Assembly: GCA_030324005.1 (NCBI GenBank)
Contig: JARDVH010000163.1
Coordinates: forward strand, 105,294,764-105,358,763
Length of the DNA stretch: 64,000 nt
Source of the DNA: Negaprion brevirostris
Lineage: Eukaryota
Reading direction: 5' to 3'
A program made the translations under genes and the position numbers. Positions within the stretch are counted from its first letter, which is position 1. Every line of letters begins with the position of its first letter. Shown one piece after another: positions 8,991-62,760 of this stretch. The notes below the pieces were generated by a model. The model had not been told where the DNA came from. It ran no database searches and was given only the letters and a program-made list of their open reading frames with translations.

Positions 8991-9467
8991 CTGCAAGAGA
9001 AGAAATGAAAATATCAAAACTCGTGCACATCAGTCCAAAGCAAAAAAGGTTAAATAAAGTAACCACCCTTTTCATTAATCCAGGTAGTCAGCTGTGCACA
9101 AAAAGCTGGTTAGTCTTTTAACTAAATGCACTGCCATCTAACAGTACTAAATGCTGCAAAACTATAAAGCAGAGTCAAGACAGACCATTTCACTAGCTTT
9201 AGTAGATTTTTAATATTAAGCCATTGCAGAAAATGAGTGCGGGGGGGAAAAAGAGACATCCATTTGGAGTCATTTGCTCTTGGTATTCCATAGCTAAGCA
9301 AACATTGCTACTTGAGTTCATATTAATTTTGTGATTTACTCATTCAAAGTTTCATGCACATTTTAAGGTTTGCTTTAAATCAGAGCAGTACTGCAAGTAG
9401 ATTTAGAGTGGCAATGTTGTGCACCTACTCCAAACTGCCTGGCCATAAATGAAGCAACACTAGGTCA

Positions 9468-9722
9468 AAAGTAGGCTTACATTAACAAGGTAATAAAGTT
9501 TGAGAAAATCCCCTAGTTGCCATACTCTGGCACCAGTTTGGGTGCACAGAATTTAGCATGGCCAACACACCTAGCCAGCATGTTTTTTGGACTGTGGGAA
9601 GAGACTAGAGCACCAAGGGAAAACCACACATGAAAGGGGGAAAATCTGCAGACTCCAGTGACTCAAGTCAGGAATTGAAATTGGTTCCCATCACTGAGGC
9701 AGCAATGCTAACCACTGTGCTA
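9468..9722 (-). mobile_element. tRNA-derived SINE (HE1-like head, alternative tail)
   Basis: Reverse-strand head gcacagtggttagcattgctgcctca; body tttagcatggcca..tttggactgtggga. Confidence 0.7.
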
Positions 9723-25593: not shown

Positions 25594-25919
25594 CTGTGCG
25601 AGGAGGAAAACACCACATCTTGTAACAAAAAGTCACCGTTCAATAGATTCCTCCATTCTTCAGAATATACAATATCATAGCTGCCATTTAAAATATCTAA
25701 TATATAGATATCCCTTTCAGGATTACCAAATTAGCCTAAACCAGAAATGTCAACTATAGGACTAAGAGGTATTTTAAGCTTATTTGAATGACTTTGCATT
25801 TTATTTACTAATCTTTGCAACATACAGCACCAATGCATCATCTACATTGTAAAATGCAGCTTAGAAAACCTATACATGCTTATTTAACCACTTTCCACAT
25901 TCATCTGGCTATCAAGGCT

Positions 25920-26120
25920 GATGTGGAGATGCTGGCATTGGACTAGGGGAAACAGTAAGAAGTGTCAACACCAGGTTGAAGTCCAACAGGAGCTTGGTGC
26001 TCTTGTCAGACGAGCAAAGGTGAACTCACCTGATGGAGCAGAAGGTGCTCTGAAAGCTAGTGGATTTTGCTATCAAATAAACCTATTGGACTTCAACCTG
26101 GTGTTGAGAGGCTTCTTACA
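25920..26120. mobile_element. Same palindromic Penelope-derived family, degenerate hammerhead at ~26030-26060
   Basis: Head gatgtggagatgctggcattggact; inverted caacaccaggttgaagtccaa / ttggacttcaacctggtgttg. Confidence 0.75.
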
Positions 26121-27289
26121 GTATCATGGCTGAGCCAGACTGTTACTAAATAAGGGGGAAAGCCCTGGTCATCAAGCACATACAATACAGTTAGACAGAA
26201 ATGAGCAAGCTACACCAAGTTGTAAAATGGGTTCCATGTCAATGTACATCCCAGCAGACCTGATAATCTTGAATAAAAAGCACTGCAACCAACTTTAAGT
26301 ACTGATCATTCTTGAGCGCTAGAATTTTGCTTTGCTAATGACTTAATGGTNNNNNNNNNNNNNNNNNNNNNNNNNNNNNNNNNNNNNNNNNNNNNNNNNN
26401 NNNNNNNNNNNNNNNNNNNNNNNNNNNNNNNNNNNNNNNNNNNNNNNNNNTTTGTTGTGTTCTTAATATATTCAGGATATGCATCAAAGTGATTTAATCT
26501 CCTTTGCACCTGCCTCAAGTAATTAGCCAGAGTGTGTGAGCAAGAGACAGGAGGCAGCGTTCTACGAACTACCTTACAATATATGCCATGATCAAGTTTT
26601 ATAAAAATGAATTTAAGACAAACATTTAATGCATCAGAAGTTCTGTGCATTTATTGAATTGCCCTTTGTATGCTTCAGAAGTGGTGTTTACAATGACCTG
26701 GAGTTCAGTCTGAGCAAGCACAAGCGTCACCTGCATACTGGAACTCAACAATTGAAGTGATTTTGTTTCCTCCTATTTAAGGCTTGGACAATTTACAGCA
26801 GACACTTCAAAATACTGCAGTATCACCAGCAGCGAGATTGTAAGATCTTGCAAATCTGTTGGCAAGATAATGTTCCAACAACAGCCCTCCAAGCCAACAT
26901 GTCCAGCATTAAGGCATGTAACAGTTCTGTTGGACATGACATTCATATGCTGAGGCCACATTCCCCAAAAGCAACTACTCCACTCAACTTGCAGCAAAAA
27001 AACTTCCAGGAGGATAGTGGAGATGCTTTCAGAGATGTCCTCAAAGCATCAATGGTGGTTAAACATCCCCACTGACACATGGCAATCCCTAGAAAAGATT
27101 TATTTGGGACATGACAAAATGAGACTGTCAGGAACAAAGATGAAGTGAAGCTCCAAAGTGTGTACAAACTTCTCAACTCATCTACTCGACCATCTAAGCA
27201 CCAACTGCCCCACAGAGATGTACTATTACTATCTCAGAACCCATCAAATAATGGGAACAAGTCATACTTGATTCCCAAAGGACTCTTGC

Positions 27290-38739: not shown

Positions 38740-39950
38740 CTAAATAAGAAAGTGCTCTTATTATAAAATGCAACTTAAGAGCAGTGATATTCCCCTCCCT
38801 GCAAAAGCCAGACTTCAGTGAACAGGAGGCCAGAAGTCAAGGTAGTTCAAGTGTTTCCACGTGTGGATCAGGAATGGGCTGCTCATGCACAATTCAGCAA
38901 GTTCTTTTGAGCAAAGATGGGCTCAGCACGAAGGTGCAAAAAAAACTGGGTCATGTGATTCAGAATTAGGGCACCATAAATCAGAGAAGAGTCCCAGGAG
39001 GGGACAGGGAGAGATCCCAATTAAGTTGTCAAGGAGAAAGACATCCCAGCAGAACTGTAGTTAACAAACTTGTGAAGAGTGCTCAGCAGAACAGGGAGGG
39101 GAGGGAGGGAGGTCCCTTTGGGACAGCAATATCTGATCAGTACAGCTGGAGAGCTGACATTGTACTCTAGTTGGTGTTTAAATCTGGGGAACATGGTGTC
39201 TCAGATGGCAGGATTGAACACAACGATAGGCTGTCATTCACGCCACCCAAATTGAAGCAACTTTGAGGTGAGATTGTTGAAGGTGAAGGTCCCTTGAGAG
39301 AGAGGAGTTTCAATGAGACTGGTCAACTCTTACTGATATCTGACTTGGTTATGGAAAAATCTGTCTTGGTCACATCTGCCATTTAATGTGTGGGGTTACA
39401 TTTGACCACAGTTTACCTGTTTTCTCCCATTCTGGGATATGAGGACAAATTGATACAGTAAACAGTTTTACCTTTGACTTTCTATCTAGTATTTATTTTT
39501 GTTTGCTCTAAACCAGTGGAATCTTGTGCATCCTGAATCTCAAAATTTTGCCCACTTTAACACAAAACACATGTTTTCCAAGGCTGACACCCAAGTTTAG
39601 GCTCAAAAAGATGGCACAAGTATAAAACTTGACAATTATCCCATTGAGAGAGAATGCATTTTTGAAAATAATCCTGTAAAAATGAACTGTGTAGGTGCAA
39701 GCCAGGAATCATGATAGCACATCCTCAGACAAAAAGATCATGAATTAATCTTCCCTTATGGGCCCACACATGCACTCAATTTTAAACTTTACCACTTCTG
39801 GTAAACAGGCAAGTTAACCAGAATCCAGAACATAGCTCATTCAGCCCACTATTGGCTAATTGCATGAAAGGGAAAACAGGCGAACCTTAAAAAAAAAAGC
39901 AGGTTGCAATATTCCAATCTGCACCAGTTTGCATTCAACATGATTCCTAC

Positions 39951-40199
39951 CTGGAGCACAGCTGTCAACCAGAGCACCCAAGGCTTTTCCATCTTTCCAG
40001 TCATTGCTGAAATTGGTGATTGGCAAATCCGGTAATTTATTCTGAATCCATCCCAACAGCCTCTGTTTGGGTGTCTGGTTTTTCGTGTCATCAGCTCCTT
40101 CATCATCCCAAACAGGCATGGAAATAGAGTAGTGAAGAATCAAAGTCCATATGAGACCTAGAATGAGTTTCAGATTTCCATCCACAATAGCTTTGCTGT
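39951..40199 (-). CDS. FLNB: FLNB exon 2 (249 nt), [31 protein letters not shown]...CAP
   Basis: tttcag acceptor, gtagga donor; calponin-homology sequence. Confidence 0.97.
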
Positions 40200-40744
40200 C
40201 TGAAAAATAAAAATGCAGGAGAACTACATTAGCATTTTGAAGAAGTGACTTCAAAGATTTCATGAAAGATTGGATCAAAATAAGGTGCCTTCTCCCCTCG
40301 TTTGTTGGCCATTTGCATGCCATGTAGGAGTCAGTGGTTCAGCTGGGATTTGTTGTCTATCCCTGTCACCAAGGTCAAGGTGGTGATTTAATACAAATAT
40401 TTAGCTTGGCATGGCTTCATGCCTCAACTCTGGCTGGGTGTGGAACTGGAGTCATACGCAGGCTGGATTAAGAAAGCATGGCAGGTTTCTTTTGAAAATA
40501 AAACTGGCTCAAAACAAAAAGTCCAACAATAAGGTCATCCCAATGGAAAATAGGTTAAAAATAAAATCAGAATTTGAAGTGAATGAGACTTCTCAATGAG
40601 CACTTCAGTGCAGCCATCTCTGGTCATGTGTAATCCCCTCCACTGCAAGTTTACTTGTGTGAATGTGTACATACACAAAGTCACAGTTTACCACCCCAAA
40701 ATGTCAGAGAACAGATAGGGCAGAATGAGTATTTGAAACAGTAT

Positions 40745-45095: not shown

Positions 45096-45967
45096 CAGAA
45101 AGATCAGATTTCAAAACAGAGTACAAGAGTTATCTGGATTGATTCAGTTGATGAGTAGCAAGCTTTTCATACTCATACAGCTTACTACAGGGCAAGATTG
45201 TCAGATGCTAAGAGATCAACTGTCTGGATTACAGAGCTCCAGACATATTCTAGCTTTACAACAAGCTTGGTTTTTATCCAATTTATCAGTATTTTATTGC
45301 ACAGGAGCACTTATCTAGCTCAGTCCTTGAACTGGTGAACATGCAACTTGAAGTGTAAACGTTGTGATTTGGAGAGGACTGCAGCATCAGGATAAAAATA
45401 CTTTGGCAGATGTTAAGGTCATTTTGATGGTTTGGCATTCAGCCATAGACTACTTTCTGACACCCAGTTATTGCGACTACACTAAAACAGACAAAAGCCA
45501 AAATCAAAACACCAATTACATTTGGTAGCACTTAATGGGCATGGCTGTGTTATTAAATGCAAAAAAGCCACAACTAGCATTGGGTATGCACCCAGTCCAG
45601 TAATGTCAAAAAAGAAAGTTAGCATTCCTTTCATCTGTCTATTGTTCCGCTTGGGGTTCATTGCATTAAATTAAAGTAGTTCGATTTCAGTTTGCTCATG
45701 CACCAACTGACATTTTAGCATAAAGTATTCACTTGTTTCTGCCACTAAAAGCTTCATTTTGTCTGGTAGTGGGAATGCAATCAGTAACACCAAACTCACA
45801 TCAAGAACAGATCCAGAATCACTCCTATGGACTAAGATATTTAAGAACCTCAATCCATGATAATTGGAACAGAGGATGTCATTTTCCAAAAATGACAACG
45901 TTACACAAAGGCCATTTTCCCCAAAGATCAAGACATTGTATGCTTTTCTGCTGTCCAAATTCAGACA

Positions 45968-46248
45968 GAAGTCTCACAACACCAGGTTAAAAGTCCAACG
46001 GGTTTATTTGGTAGTAAACCCCACTAACTTTGTGCGCTGCTCCTTCATCAGGTGAGTGGGGAGTTCTGATCACAGACAGGGCATATAAAGGCACAGTTTA
46101 CAGAATACTGATTAGAATGCTCACCTGACGAAGGAGCAGTGCTCCGAAAGCTAGCAGGGTTTACTACCAAATAAACCCGTTGGACTTTAACCTGATGTTG
46201 AGATTTCTTACTGTGTTTACCCCAATCCCAAGCTGGCATCTCCACATG
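45968..46248. mobile_element. Palindromic non-autonomous Penelope-like element (inverted pseudo-LTR arms with hammerhead motifs)
   Basis: Arms ~45968-46056 and ~46119-46209 are inverted copies; terminal gcatctccacat shared with other copies. Confidence 0.75.
46121..46155 (+). ncRNA. Hammerhead ribozyme motif, core intact, stem I weakened
   Basis: CUGACGA-A-GGAGC[AGU]GCUCC-GAAA-GC-UA. Confidence 0.6.
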
Positions 46249-47567
46249 ACGTTCAAATTTAGCCATGAAGCCCCATTAATTTTTGGCTGAACTCAGTCAG
46301 GCGGCACTTAATGTTTAAAGTTGCCTAGATATAGCAAGGCTTTCCATAAGGAGGCTTTGACAAGAGGTCACTGCTTCAAGTAGTCAGCATTGCCCAAAAT
46401 CTCCACTTGTATTTCTTAAGCTCTCAAATAGTTTCCCAAACCTGGTACATAAAACACAGCTGAATGTTACTTTGCAAAGCTGCTCCTGATATAATGTGAT
46501 ACTTACTGCAAACACAACTTATTTCAAATAACTGAAAGATAAGTTTCCTCCAACATCCCATCAAAACAAACAAATGTTGAGACAAAATCTTCATGACATC
46601 CGGAATCAAATATTTCTGGTGACCAATTGATTTTGTAAACAAAATGGTTAAAAGTCTCACTTAACAGTCAATGGGAAAAGCTCCATTGGGTTAAATGTTT
46701 AACCCAAGCAAGCATCACATCAAAAGAAAGCTATTTAAATTCTCAGTATGGTCTGCAATGACAGTGCTTACATGGCTCTTCATCCCTACAAAGTTGGTGG
46801 ACCTTAAGCCCGTGCACTCCCACGTACTGAAATATTTATAGATCAAGTACTGAAAACAGCTCCCACAATAGGATTTTGACAATGACAGTGATACATGTCC
46901 AAATCAAGATGAGGCTTGAGGCAATGGCAATGCATCTGCTGCCTTTGGTTTTCAAGGTTTTGACTGGGAGGTGCCAGAAGACCTGTGGTGACTATATATT
47001 GATTACAGATTGGATAACAGTAAATTTAGAACACATGTAGAGTCATTGGGACTAAAACAGCAGGTGTATAATTTAACACTAGGGTTTGAAACTACAATTG
47101 CATACATAGATTTCTCTAGTTTTGCTGCAAAATACCTACAAATGCAGATGACAGATTGGTCTGGTTTTAAGAAAATGGCTGTTCTCAAAATACATCACTG
47201 CACTTGGGCAAACTCCAAGAACTTCTGTTGCAATATTGCCACTCCCTCCCCTTGCTCTGGCTGCATGGTAGAGGAGACATTTCACAGCAATTTTGGGAGT
47301 AGTTAGGTTTGACATTATTGCACCAGGACAGAAAAAAGGTCAAAGTTTATTTTAGATGCCTAGGTTGAAGTGGCACCATGAAGCAATTCAATGTATTTTA
47401 GGGATAATAGTTCTCAAATAATAGCTCAGTACAGTATTGGCAGTTTTCAGTGGAATCAAGAGGCAAATGCAGACAAATGTGGAGAAATGGGAAGATGAAA
47501 AGTCAACATCAATTTCCACAAAGTGTACCTATACACTGATTTAGACGAGGGGACTCAAATGTTAAAT

Positions 47568-47860
47568 CAGAATCCTAAAGTATAGAAGGTGGCTGTTCTG
47601 TCCATCAAGTCTACAACTTGCTAACAGAGCATCTTTCCCATGCCTACCCACTCCTTACACCCCATCCTGTAACTCCACATATTTGCCCCTCACTTAAACA
47701 ATCTGGACACCAAGGGGCAATTTAGCATGGCCAATCTAATCTGAGGTGGGTATGCTGGCGTTGGACTGGGGTAAACACAGTAAAAAGTCTGACAACACCA
47801 GGTTTTAAACCTGGTGTTGTCAGACTTTTTACAATCTAATCTGCACATCTTTGGACCAGA
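47568..47860 (-). mobile_element. Partial HE1-like SINE hosting the palindromic insertion
   Basis: aaggggcaatttagcatggccaatc...ctgcacatctttggac split by the insert. Confidence 0.68.
47744..47832. mobile_element. Same family, internally deleted perfect palindrome inserted in a SINE
   Basis: 26-bp perfect arms 47780-47832; 12-bp flanking direct repeat. Confidence 0.75.
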
Positions 47861-48524: not shown

Positions 48525-48927
48525 GTAGAATTCCTACAGTGTAGAAGGATGCAATTTGGTGAGTCTGCAGTGACTCCAACAAAGCATCCCACCAAGACCC
48601 TATCCCTATAACCCCATGCATTTAACCTGCTAATCCCCCTAACTTACACATTTTGGGGCACTAAGGGGCAATTTAACATGATTAATCCACCTAAACTGCA
48701 CATCTTTGGACTGTGGGAGGGAAACCGAGCACCTGAAGGAAACCCACAGACTCAGAACCCATTGCTGAAATCANNNNNNNNNNNNNNNNNNNNNNNNNNN
48801 NNNNNNNNNNNNNNNNNNNNNNNNNNNNNNNNNNNNNNNNNNNNNNNNNNNNNNNNNNNNNNNNNNNNNNNNNAATCAAACTTGGGTCCATGGTGCTGTG
48901 AGGCAGTAGTGATAATCACTGTGCCAC
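48525..48927 (-). mobile_element. HE1-like tRNA-SINE spanning a gap
   Basis: Tail, body and head motifs present. Confidence 0.72.
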
Positions 48928-53467: not shown

Positions 53468-53745
53468 ACAGTTTAATGTCACAAGTAGGCTTACATTAAC
53501 ATTCCAATGAAGTTGCTGTGAAAATCCCATACTTGTCACACTCTAGCACCTGTTTGGGTACACTGAGGAAGAATTTAGCATGGCCAATGCATCTAACCAG
53601 CATATCCTTTGGACTGCAGGAGGAAACCAGGCCATCTGGAGGAAACCCACAGACATGGAGAGAACGTGCAGACTTTCCAGACAGAGATCCAAGCTGGGAA
53701 TTGAACACAGATCCCTGGCAGTCTGTGCAGCCCCACCTATACCAC
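53468..53745 (-). mobile_element. tRNA-SINE, alternative-tail type
   Basis: acaagtaggcttacattaaca..gaaaatccc tail; shared body. Confidence 0.7.
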
Positions 53746-58764: not shown

Positions 58765-58995
58765 ATGGTGGCACAATGATTAGCACAAATCTAGGTTTGA
58801 TTTCCAGCTTGCACATTCTCCTCGTGTCTGTGGGTTTCTTATGGGTGCTCCAGTTTCCTCCCACAATCTGAAGAATGTGCTGGCCAGGTGCCTCAATCGT
58901 GCTAAATTCTCCTTTGGTGTACCCAAACAGGCAAATTGTGACGACTAGGGGATTTTCATAATAACTTCATTGCAGCATTAAGGCAAGCCTACTTG
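58765..58995 (+). mobile_element. tRNA-SINE, alternative-tail type
   Basis: atggtggcacaatgattagcac head; gactaggggatttt..aagcctacttgtgact tail. Confidence 0.68.
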
Positions 58996-60296
58996 TGACT
59001 AGTAAACAAACTTCAACCCTTGCACATTTATTATGGCTAATCCACCTAATCTACACATCTTTGGACAAAAGGACAATTTCAGCTCCTTGAAGAGCATGTT
59101 GATAGTGGTGGAAGCAATCACTACTGGAGTTGCTCAGACCACAACTGGATAGACAAGAAGGGAATCAAAGACAACCCCACTCAATTGGAGAACTGTAGGA
59201 GCATTGAAAGATGTGGTTGATCTGTTAAAGGCTGCAGACAAGGAGAGAAACTGCACTGTTAGAGGATGCAATTTGTAACTGGTTAGAGTGGTTTCAATAT
59301 ATGGTCAGGACAGAGATTCAAACATACTTGTAGGAAAGATAAGTGGTTTTAGAAGCTGGCTACTTAATTTCCCTATCCTCATCACCTACTGCTTCATCTA
59401 AAATAGCTTAGTATCTCAACACACCACAACAGCATCCTATGAATCTACAGGGATACTCTTATGGTTTTTGAATCAGGCCCATCATCTGCAAAGCCCAATA
59501 TTCAACCTGCATTACTTTCTGGGAATTCATTGAAATATCTACACACTTCAGGATGATTTATAATCAAGACAACTTGATAACTCAAACAAAAGCAAGCCGT
59601 AAACAGCCTATCCAGAAATATACATGTTAATACCATCAAGTTGGAACTTGTTCTATGGCTGGCTAATTAAAATAAATGTTACTAGTTTAATGTTCACCAA
59701 TATAATTATATGAATCAGTCTTGATTTAGTATTCAATGAAGGAAGCAAACAAGACATGTGCAAGACCTTGAAAGATTGGTCAGGAGCAAGAATTCAACCC
59801 AGGTAGATGTAATCCAGATTCTATTAAAAAATAGTTGAAAAGGTACTTAGGATCTAGTATAAGAATTGATCAGAAAGGCAGCAGCTCCGATTACACTACT
59901 GAGATGAATTTTTACAGCTATTCATCAAGTGGGAATTCAGAAATTACTTTTACCGGTATTTGCCACTGGTGGAAAATACACAAAGATACTAATCAAGTTT
60001 AGGGTAATTACTTAGTGCCACTGACAACCACATTTTTGTAGTTAGTAATTCTGCTCAAAAGGGGTAGTTAACTTTAAACTACTCAAGTCAAGAAGGCACG
60101 TGGGGCATGTATTAACATTCCAAAGAGTTACTACCTCAGCAGACTGACGGCCAATTCTCTGCACTACTCATCCACATTTGCATGTCTNNNNNNNNNNNNN
60201 NNNNNNNNNNNNNNNNNNNNNNNNNNNNNNNNNNNNNNNNNNNNNNNNNNNNNNNNNNNNNNNNNNNNNNNNNNNNNNNNNNNNNNNNNNNNNNNN

Positions 60297-60530: not shown

Positions 60531-61925
60531 GGAGTATCAGCCATCAGATAACTAAAGATCAAATGTGAACACAAGCTCTCAAATCGCAATGCAAGTGCGA
60601 CAAGGCTGTAACACCAGGCTAGTTGGTATTTAAGGGTCTTACCAAGATTAGACAATAGCTAGAAACTAATCTCAATTTATGCAGAATGGAAATACTAAAT
60701 TCTAGATTATACTAAATGGAAGTTAGACAATTAAATTGCAGTTCTAAAAGAGACTTCCAAAGCACATTTTGCCCCAAGCAGTGACTGGAGTCATTCTACC
60801 ATAATTCTATAAATTGCTAATCTCAGCTGCATTTAAACTTCCATCCTGGATAGTTCAGGGAGAGGAGAGGAAAGGTGGCATTTCTGCAATAAGTAACTGG
60901 AAATTCAGAGTGCTTGCTTAGTTAAGAATACTGCATGTAGTGTGTCCTGAAGGAACCATTCTTGAACTATACTTTAATGAACGATCAAAGTTGGATTCTT
61001 ATCTTCTGCATTATACAAAAGCAGGCTTGAAGTTAAGTATTGCAAGTCACCAACCCATACCCATTACTCAGTCTATCAAATTTCATTGCATTACTCATTT
61101 TTCCCCAATCCATCACAAAAGATTTCAAAATGCTCAAAAAGGCAGCTATTTAAGGGTTATGGGGAATTAAGGACAAGGGAAGAGCTTTCAAGTGCTTGCG
61201 TTTTCAGCTATTGATAAAGGGTCTTAATGTGAAAAGTGTTGTGACAATGTTTACTTTTCCAACATCTCGTTGTCACTATGCAATAGTGGGTGAATGGGCA
61301 TTTAAATACAGCACAATCTTTGAACTTGAAGGTTCCCCTCAAGCAGACTATAGCTTGCAGTACAATGAACCACAACTTGAATTGTGGAGGACAGGACATC
61401 ACTGCAATGGAGCCACACATGTCAGCTTGCAGGCTCAGACAAACCAGTCCCTGCCACCAGGAATGCTGGGAAGGGGTAGAGTGTCATGTGAAGTTCCAGA
61501 ATCTGGTTCTCACTGCCATTTTCACGCCTCCATGGATTTTCTGAAACACAGCCCAGAAGGATAATGTCACCCTAAAAAGATTACTTGAGTTTAAAAACAC
61601 ATTCATCTAACTTAAAATTGAATAAGTTACATCTGGACTATTTTTAGATGAATGCAAGTTAACTCAAGGCAGCTAGAAACTGAACCATGGATGTTGCTGT
61701 GAAAACAATTATGCACATTGAAATTAGGTATGAAGTGTCAGTCCCATCCAGCACACCTTTACCCCCAATATACTAGCAGTATTGACTTGTCCAGTTGCTC
61801 AATTTCACAATTTAGTGATGTTTACTTAACTGTTGGTCTTTATTTTTATTCCAATTCAAATCAAGTCCAATTCAGAGTCTTATACATTTTAGCTTAATTT
61901 GAAGCAACTTTTTATTTTAAAAGTG

Positions 61926-61958
61926 GCATCTCGGCCTTTTGGCTAAGATGCAAGTGAG
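61926..61958 (+). pseudogene. U2 snRNA 5' fragment (about nt 4-36)
   Basis: 21-nt exact match TCTCGGCCTTTTGGCTAAGAT to U2 nt 7-27, then g-CAAGTG. Confidence 0.8.
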
Positions 61959-61980
61959 ATCAAGCCTTGGAGGATGTGCA

Positions 61981-62263
61981 ATGCCTATTCCAATCAGCTT
62001 GGGTCATGTAGATCAAAGCCCAAGACAGGTGATAAGAGCCCTGTCTTGTCACCTTGGATCAGGAGTGTCTCAATTTGTTGAAACTCTGAATTGGAATAAA
62101 AACAATCCAATCAGGTCAAGTCCAATCCAGACTCTCAACAAGTGAGACATTCCTGATCCAAGTTGATAGGTCATGATGTGGGTATGCTGGCGTTGATAAG
62201 ACAGGATTCTCACCTCCTGTCTTGAGCTTGACCTACATGATCCAAGCTGACTGGAGTAGGCAT
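61981..62263. repeat. Long imperfect inverted repeat (~115-bp arms) directly downstream of the U2 fragment
   Basis: Left arm 61981-62095 aligns to the reverse complement of 62121-62263 (roughly 85% by eye, 30-nt insertion in right arm). Confidence 0.85.
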
Positions 62264-62587
62264 AGCTCCTCAAAACTGTTGGTCTCTGAAATGGATGAAA
62301 TCTGGGAGGACCCACTCGAAGCAGATTTAAATGACAGATTGATAAGTAAAGTTGTGTTATCTGATTGTTTAGATAAAGATACCTTTGGTTTGGCTTTCAT
62401 TTAAGTACTGCAAGTGATTTATCTACACCATTCAGCCCCTTTTCTAATTGTAGAAAATCTCACTAAATTGTTCAGTATAAACAATAAGTAATTGGTTACA
62501 ATTTGGAGGCCCAATTGGGTGTACACTCATCTTTCCACTTCAATGCAAGGGTTGTGCAACATTTATGATAATTGTCAAAGATCAGCA

Positions 62588-62760
62588 AGTCACAATGCCA
62601 GGTTAAAGTCCAACAGGTTTATTTGGCAGCACAAGCTTTTGGAATCTCAGGCTCCAGCCCAAAACTCCAAAAGCTTATGCTGCCACAAACCTGTTGGACT
62701 TTAACCTGGCAGTGAGACACCTTACTGTGTTTACCCTTGTCCAACACTAGTATCTCCACA
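62588..62760. mobile_element. Same family, palindromic copy lacking ribozyme cores
   Basis: gccaggttaaagtccaacaggttt / aaacctgttggactttaacctggc; ends in tatctccaca. Confidence 0.75.

Follow-up and report, generated by a model that had tools for sequence, protein, structure and literature searches.

The 434-bp insert at 61840–62273 of the 64,000-nt Negaprion brevirostris stretch analyzed here (the window) is composed of three pieces of one high-copy monomer carrying part of the U2 snRNA, laid out in the order minus-plus-minus (pieces A, B and C), and the exact 12-bp repeat that brackets it is a true target-site duplication, recognized as such from an empty site seen in one contig of one run. 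The preliminary description of this DNA had taken the U2 piece and the ~280-nt fold-back behind it as a single element or structured RNA with U2 as its head. Neither part of that reading survived, since the two arms of the fold-back turned out to be inverted copies of the same monomer and the U2 piece was found to lie internally, behind a leader shared by the family.

The assembled contigs of 8 of 16 public runs (organisms A–G and one more; X3–X5, X7–X10 and X16 were left out) were aligned to the locus. Between 311 and 4,542 contigs aligned per run in all eight runs, and the summed contig depth, which was 2–21 in the flanks of seven of them, rose to 10^4–10^6 in the arms of the fold-back with sharp edges at ~61840 and ~62273, values which are not copy numbers and support ‘very abundant’ only. 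The insert thus consists of copies of a very abundant short repeat, with a monomer length of at least ~240 nt. No second full monomer copy was found within the window, no ORF of 120 aa at the locus, and no Rfam match at the gathering level within the window, the miRNA matches in that scan being discarded as generic hairpin matches. Patterns taken from the family body had no match in viral, metagenome or prokaryote contigs, and the U2 21-mer had none in viral contigs. The earlier proposal of a mobile, non-coding, U2-containing repeat is supported.

The 12-bp direct repeat, reported before and exact at both copies, begins at 61828 and 62274 and nowhere else in the window. Three exact 12-mer pairs spaced 300–600 bp apart occur within the window, so that such a repeat is by itself unremarkable; this pair, however, coincides with both edges of the repeat-depth block (chance ~1e-5). 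The preliminary description had looked to an empty orthologous site holding one 12-mer, and such a site was found in run X15 (organism G), where one contig with a depth of 21.4 spans both flanks and joins 61802 to 62274 through 28 intervening letters that match window positions 61802–61827 at their first 13 and last 10 positions. One 12-mer is kept there and the insert is absent, which identifies the 12-bp repeat as a true target-site duplication. In six of the eight runs (X1, X2, X6, X11, X12 and X13) the site is filled, with flank contigs entering the insert from both sides, while the flanks had no contig cover in X14. Among the matches listed for the seven runs with flank cover, whose contigs break inside repeats, no partly filled site was seen.

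Features of the insert and its target site. Positions are those of the window; a dot marks features without strand.
Feature	Position	Strand	Basis or remark
Left copy of the 12-bp target-site duplication	61828–61839	.	exact repeat; single copy at the X15 empty site
Piece A, 41-nt 3′ end of a family member; AATAAA and a short A-rich end abut the left duplication	61840–61880	−	loose ends, alignment
Piece B, leader, U2 piece, hairpin body, AATAAA (62095–62100) and short A-rich end	61883–62105	+	
AT-rich leader	61883–61922	+	common to many copies, upstream of the U2-like part
U2 piece, nt 7–33 (stem-loop I with three more pairs)	61929–61956	+	Rfam alignment, nhmmer
Monomer hairpin, 9-bp stem and 10-nt loop	62021–62048	+	second copy at 62198–62223 in piece C
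Piece C, a further monomer copy facing B tail to tail	62106–62271	−	loose ends behind 62271
Foreign 30-nt insert in piece C	62169–62198	+	short stub of a different, probably Penelope-like repeat
Right copy of the 12-bp target-site duplication	62274–62285	.	two extra letters (62272–62273) just before it

The division into three pieces follows from the way in which other copies of the family depart from the locus. Past 61880 these copies read like 62136 onward, and before 61839 they have unlike flanks with a T run, which makes 61840–61880 a third family piece. Behind 62271 they show the reverse complement of the U2-side stretch of piece B (among the rows listed, in 7 of 8 runs), which indicates that both arms are copies of one monomer. 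Read in U2-sense orientation, this monomer runs from the leader through an extended U2 stem-loop I and a repeated U2 nt 24–31 into several successive hairpins, followed by AATAAA and a few A; at the locus the tails hold only about two A after the AATAAA signal. Piece B misses ~20 nt of its tail, and piece C is without approximately its last 20 nt and is cut on its 5′ side before the U2 piece. B and C agree at 107 of 133 positions (80%), and ortholog contigs of X11 and X13 bridge the A–B joint, reaching the U2 part from the left flank by way of 61880. Piece B is more divergent from the family majority than the flanks are between organisms; an older source copy could account for this divergence, which was not counted as evidence. 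In the orthologs of X2, X11 and X12, right-flank contigs carry 38–56 unaligned letters before 62242 (window 62186–62241), suggesting an indel or rearrangement of piece C shared by that group.

Both piece A and the foreign insert in piece C were absent from the first reading. The latter is edged by a 7-bp repeat (62162–62168 and 62192–62198) and matches the end of another repeat in the window, at 47742–47763, in 21 of 22 letters. Another copy of that repeat (~45960–46260) contains what we take to be a hammerhead-like core, and hammerhead motifs are described in Penelope-like elements (PMC4209133).

Enclosed by one 12-bp duplication, the three pieces likely arrived together, by target-primed reverse transcription of more than one RNA copy in a single event. 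An enzyme of presumed L1/Tx1 type would have nicked the target and started synthesis from the A-rich 3′ end of piece A; cDNA made on further copies (B and C) would then have been attached, and in the last step the 5′-truncated end of C would have been sealed to the opposite side. The same result would follow from a transcript of a composite already present elsewhere in the genome. The polarity of the locus is clear, with the left duplication adjoining the A-rich end and the right one adjoining the truncation and the two extra letters, and an A-rich end at one duplication with a truncation and extra letters at the other is a signature of target-primed reverse transcription. The tail letters of C match a recurring family variant absent from A and B (compared by eye), and B and C are independent copies from separate templates. 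One duplication round three pieces, separate templates and no intermediate together favor one event, or the copying of a ready-made composite. The target site, however, is unlike what we take to be the A/T-run L1 consensus, which counts against the proposed mechanism. L1 insertions derived from two RNAs, in the same or opposite orientation, are described in cultured cells (PMC11702581), yet this precedent comes from human cells with induced L1 and not from the fish germ line. The single event is further weakened in that the empty site is one contig of one run, that seven runs are few and their contigs break in the repeat, so that an intermediate could be missed, and that no partner LINE was found and the monomer as seen lacks its 5′ end.

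A serial origin, in which a minus-strand A+C copy inserted first and created the 12-bp duplication, and B later entered its 3′ end in the opposite direction, duplicating 25–31 nt, is rather less probable. The stretches 61850–61880 and 62106–62135, which flank B, are 84% alike over an A–C overlap of ~25–31 nt, as for a decayed duplication round a nested B, and in the X12 ortholog 5 nt are missing at 62111, making this overlap tighter. On the other side, the differences between A and C fit recurring family variants and not random decay (judged by eye), an observation that only weakens the serial origin; A resembles the B subtype; and no site with A+C only was seen in the seven runs with flank cover. 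Insertion in one event from several RNAs is kept as the preferred account of the locus.

As for the monomer itself, the exact 21-mer at 61929–61949 equals U2 nt 7–27, as had been read from the sequence before, and the similarity extends to nt 33 (61956) with one G inserted. With a U2 profile built from 86 distinct real U2 sequences from public contigs, nhmmer gave the piece an E-value of 2.7e-8, and the chance of such a match within the window is ~2e-6; its score is nevertheless below the Rfam gathering threshold (20.6 vs 46 bits). U2 nt 1–6 are altered, the stretch that pairs with the branch point is absent from the piece, and directly after it 61957–61964 repeats U2 nt 24–31. At 61954, ~99% of the depth is A, which indicates that the family is slightly less U2-like than the present copy. 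The profile search found no other significant U2 piece on either strand, the 3′ part included. Two candidates were rejected as too weak, namely 61976–62000 as sense U2 nt 31–55 (18/25, E 20) and an antisense match to U2 nt 148–184 (3.5 bits, E 0.014).

Before 61915, 30–195 contigs per run share a 30-letter AT-rich stretch like 61883–61914 (8 of 8 runs, agreement 0.66–0.89), which places a leader of at least 38 nt in front of U2 nt 1. U2 nt 7–33 is internal to the family and not its 5′ end. The junction between U2 piece and body is spanned by contigs in 8 of 8 runs. In X15, the U2 part (61910–61967) reaches a depth of ~10^6, five to ten times that of the body, and the letters of leader and loop are different, a hint that other or younger families possess the same U2 module. 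Elsewhere, a metagenome contig (L062, 1–1760) carries nine U2 21-mers in 1.8 kb in a tandem-like array, and eukaryotic contigs within bacterial genome bins (L162, L154, L155 and L158) also hold U2 sequence: in L162 and L154 a U2 5′ piece is fused to non-U2 sequence, possibly as Keno/Utopia junctions or tailless retrocopies, and L155 and L158 each have two U2 21-mers near each other.

The leader bears on a further reading, which concerns the family and not the build of the locus, that the monomer is the 3′ untranslated end of an autonomous LINE of L1/Tx1 type, mostly present as 5′-truncated stubs and with a U2-derived hairpin inside. Sequence shared for 38 nt or more ahead of U2 nt 1 in all eight runs, with no start seen, would be expected of such an end, as would AATAAA and the A-rich tail, and some crocodilian Tx1 families are described as carrying U1/U2 pieces, though at their 5′ ends. 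Against this, two contigs (X12 record 20 and X6 record 26) continue for ~1,190 letters upstream of 61915, unbroken and at low depth, so that those copies pass into apparently unique DNA. We consider a LINE end unlikely, yet worth retaining beside a short non-coding family.

The fold-back with a sub-hairpin in each arm, noted before, was confirmed. Its arms (~61966–62105 and ~62106–62271) fold at z = −12.9 on the plus strand and −14.0 on the minus strand against shuffles, compared with z = −2.75 for piece B alone. The earlier choice between rod and cruciform could be narrowed by comparing both folds: the rod is favored by 8 kcal/mol (plus) and 13 kcal/mol (minus), with 106–114 inter-arm pairs. 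The sub-hairpin of each arm is the monomer's own hairpin, seen twice. In this hairpin, the listed differences from the family majority (B and C together) fall on 5 of 20 loop letters vs 1 of 36 stem letters (p = 0.018, with C counted by eye and small numbers), the X15 variant has another loop and unchanged stems, and no compensatory change was seen in it. On these small numbers, the monomer hairpin does look constrained at the family level.

A single mobile or functional structured RNA, combining U2 piece and fold-back, would draw on the very stable rod and on the presence of the insert at the orthologous site in 6 of 8 runs. This reading is very improbable and already largely refuted. The depth at the B–C joint (62111) is 4–82 in four runs, that is ~2–15 times the flank against ~10^4 times in the arms, so the joint is near single-copy. 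The arms depart from the family majority at 14 places, of which 12 can be mapped to the other arm and only 1 of those 12 is shared, so that private changes go uncompensated. The foreign 30-nt insert splits one arm, and the right arm differs in X2, X11 and X12 through the unaligned letters described above. The long rod is a by-product of two tail-to-tail family copies with no sign of maintenance, and the fold-back probably has no functional role. By its predicted fold, the rod would make the filamin pre-mRNA double-stranded at this place; an antisense effect on U2 was set aside as unlikely, the antisense stretch being mostly self-paired in that fold (mean pairing 0.65).

A 5′-truncated Keno or Utopia sitting in a U2 gene fragment is scarcely credible: a U2 5′ piece is indeed followed by a tail with AATAAA, but U2 stops at nt 33, short of the insertion site at nt 38/39 near which its end had been placed in the first reading, no U2 3′ part follows, nt 1–6 are altered, and the actual target site carries no U2 sequence. 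No insertion at U2 nt 38/39 with nt 39 onward as the 3′ flank was found, and an ORF for reverse transcriptase and endonuclease is absent at the locus, as it would also be from a truncated copy. A tailless U2 retropseudogene was rejected because leader and body are common to many copies, and a MITE or fold-back DNA transposon because the insert ends are not inverted repeats of each other and the central joint is near single-copy.

The gene around the insert is a minus-strand filamin with filamin B as its best match, in agreement with the FLNB assignment made before, and the insert likely lies in its first intron. Motifs that we take to mark filamin exon 1 were not found in the window, no CpG island was found at 40–64 kb of the window, and three N gaps lie between the exon at 39949–40200 and the insert. 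Inverted stubs of a second, probably Penelope-like repeat family occur at 45967–46208, 47780–47832, 62589–62718 and 25919–26125, which indicates that long fold-backs from inverted repeat copies are common in the window. At 47715–47860, a Penelope-like stub presumably lies within what resembles a tRNA-type SINE tail. A dispersed ~200-nt repeat is present in four copies of 70–75% identity (9459–9654, 53471–53674, 58810–59007 and 48652–48751).

What is new here is the empty site, the abundance in all eight runs, the shared leader and the three-piece composite build; given such abundance, de novo libraries may well include the repeat. Within the literature searched, snRNA-derived SINEs are reported from crocodilians only, and how these SINEU elements are transcribed is stated as an open question (PMC4494074). 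With the conserved leader ahead of its U2 piece, a second, abundant lineage offers a direct candidate for the missing promoter or 5′ signal. The empty site shows retroposition-style mobility, the locus provides a natural, inherited example of a multi-piece inverted insertion, and a fold-back that is probably non-functional removes the most exotic part of the first reading. It is quite possible, and proposed here tentatively, that sharks possess a family of snRNA-derived retroposons that ranks among the largest so far encountered, has no entry in repeat libraries and is independent of SINEU in crocodilians. It would have an AT-rich leader, a lengthened U2 stem-loop I without the branch-point-pairing part and a hairpin stack with constant stems, and its reverse-transcriptase partner would be able to splice several RNAs into one germ-line insertion. 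If so, multi-RNA insertions would create ready-made intronic dsRNA, and dated presence/absence sites such as the filamin locus would be of use as markers in phylogeny.

The two ~80% alike family copies in opposite orientation resemble the inverted Alu pairs of introns, which give long dsRNA open to editing by ADAR; the dsRNA here is predicted. Like complex L1-mediated insertions, the locus combines several pieces of cDNA, oriented alike or oppositely, in one insertion, whereas the former arose somatically in human cells in which L1 was induced and the present one is old, inherited and built of short non-coding copies only (PMC11702581). With Keno (Tx1 clade) and Utopia it shares U2 5′ sequence beside retroposon sequence; in Utopia, U2 resumes at nt 39 downstream of the insertions, at the same site as Keno, nt 38/39 (PMC4640811). 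Those elements are flanked by U2, whereas the U2 piece of the present family is carried within the element itself and the DNA targeted is ordinary and intron-like. As an abundant short retroposon of cartilaginous fishes, the family is comparable to CmiSINE and SacSINE1, in which tRNA heads are combined with CORE or Deu domains and L2 tails; the main text of the paper describing them contains neither ‘snRNA’ nor ‘SINEU’ (PMC5499810), and SINEU is cited as crocodilian in PMC4758252. Our literature search, with Repbase and Dfam outside its scope, found no report of a U2-bearing retroposon in sharks.

The closest comparison is with SINEU-1 (simplest form SINEU-1J) and SINEU-2, the snRNA-derived SINEs of crocodilians (Kojima 2015, PMC4494074). 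Like these, the shark family is high-copy and, in the part seen, apparently short and non-coding, with a short U2-derived piece (nt 7–33) that is in part internally duplicated, T runs speaking against Pol III, an A-rich 3′ end, here with only about two A after the signal, and target-site duplications of ~10 bp; for SINEU-1, too, no partner LINE is identified in that source (PMC4494074). One snRNA–body junction recurs over many copies, as from a master element and not from independent chimeras. Unlike SINEU, no U1 part was found in it, the body is a hairpin stack, the host is not a crocodilian, and the U2 piece sits behind a family-wide leader (at least 38 nt in 8 of 8 runs) and not at the 5′ end, 5′ extensions (31 and 42 nt) being described for SINEU-2 in subfamilies only (PMC4494074). 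Because the snRNA part is not a 5′ head, the family is not filed as a SINEU member; this apparently undescribed U2-bearing family works like SINEU and is set beside it.
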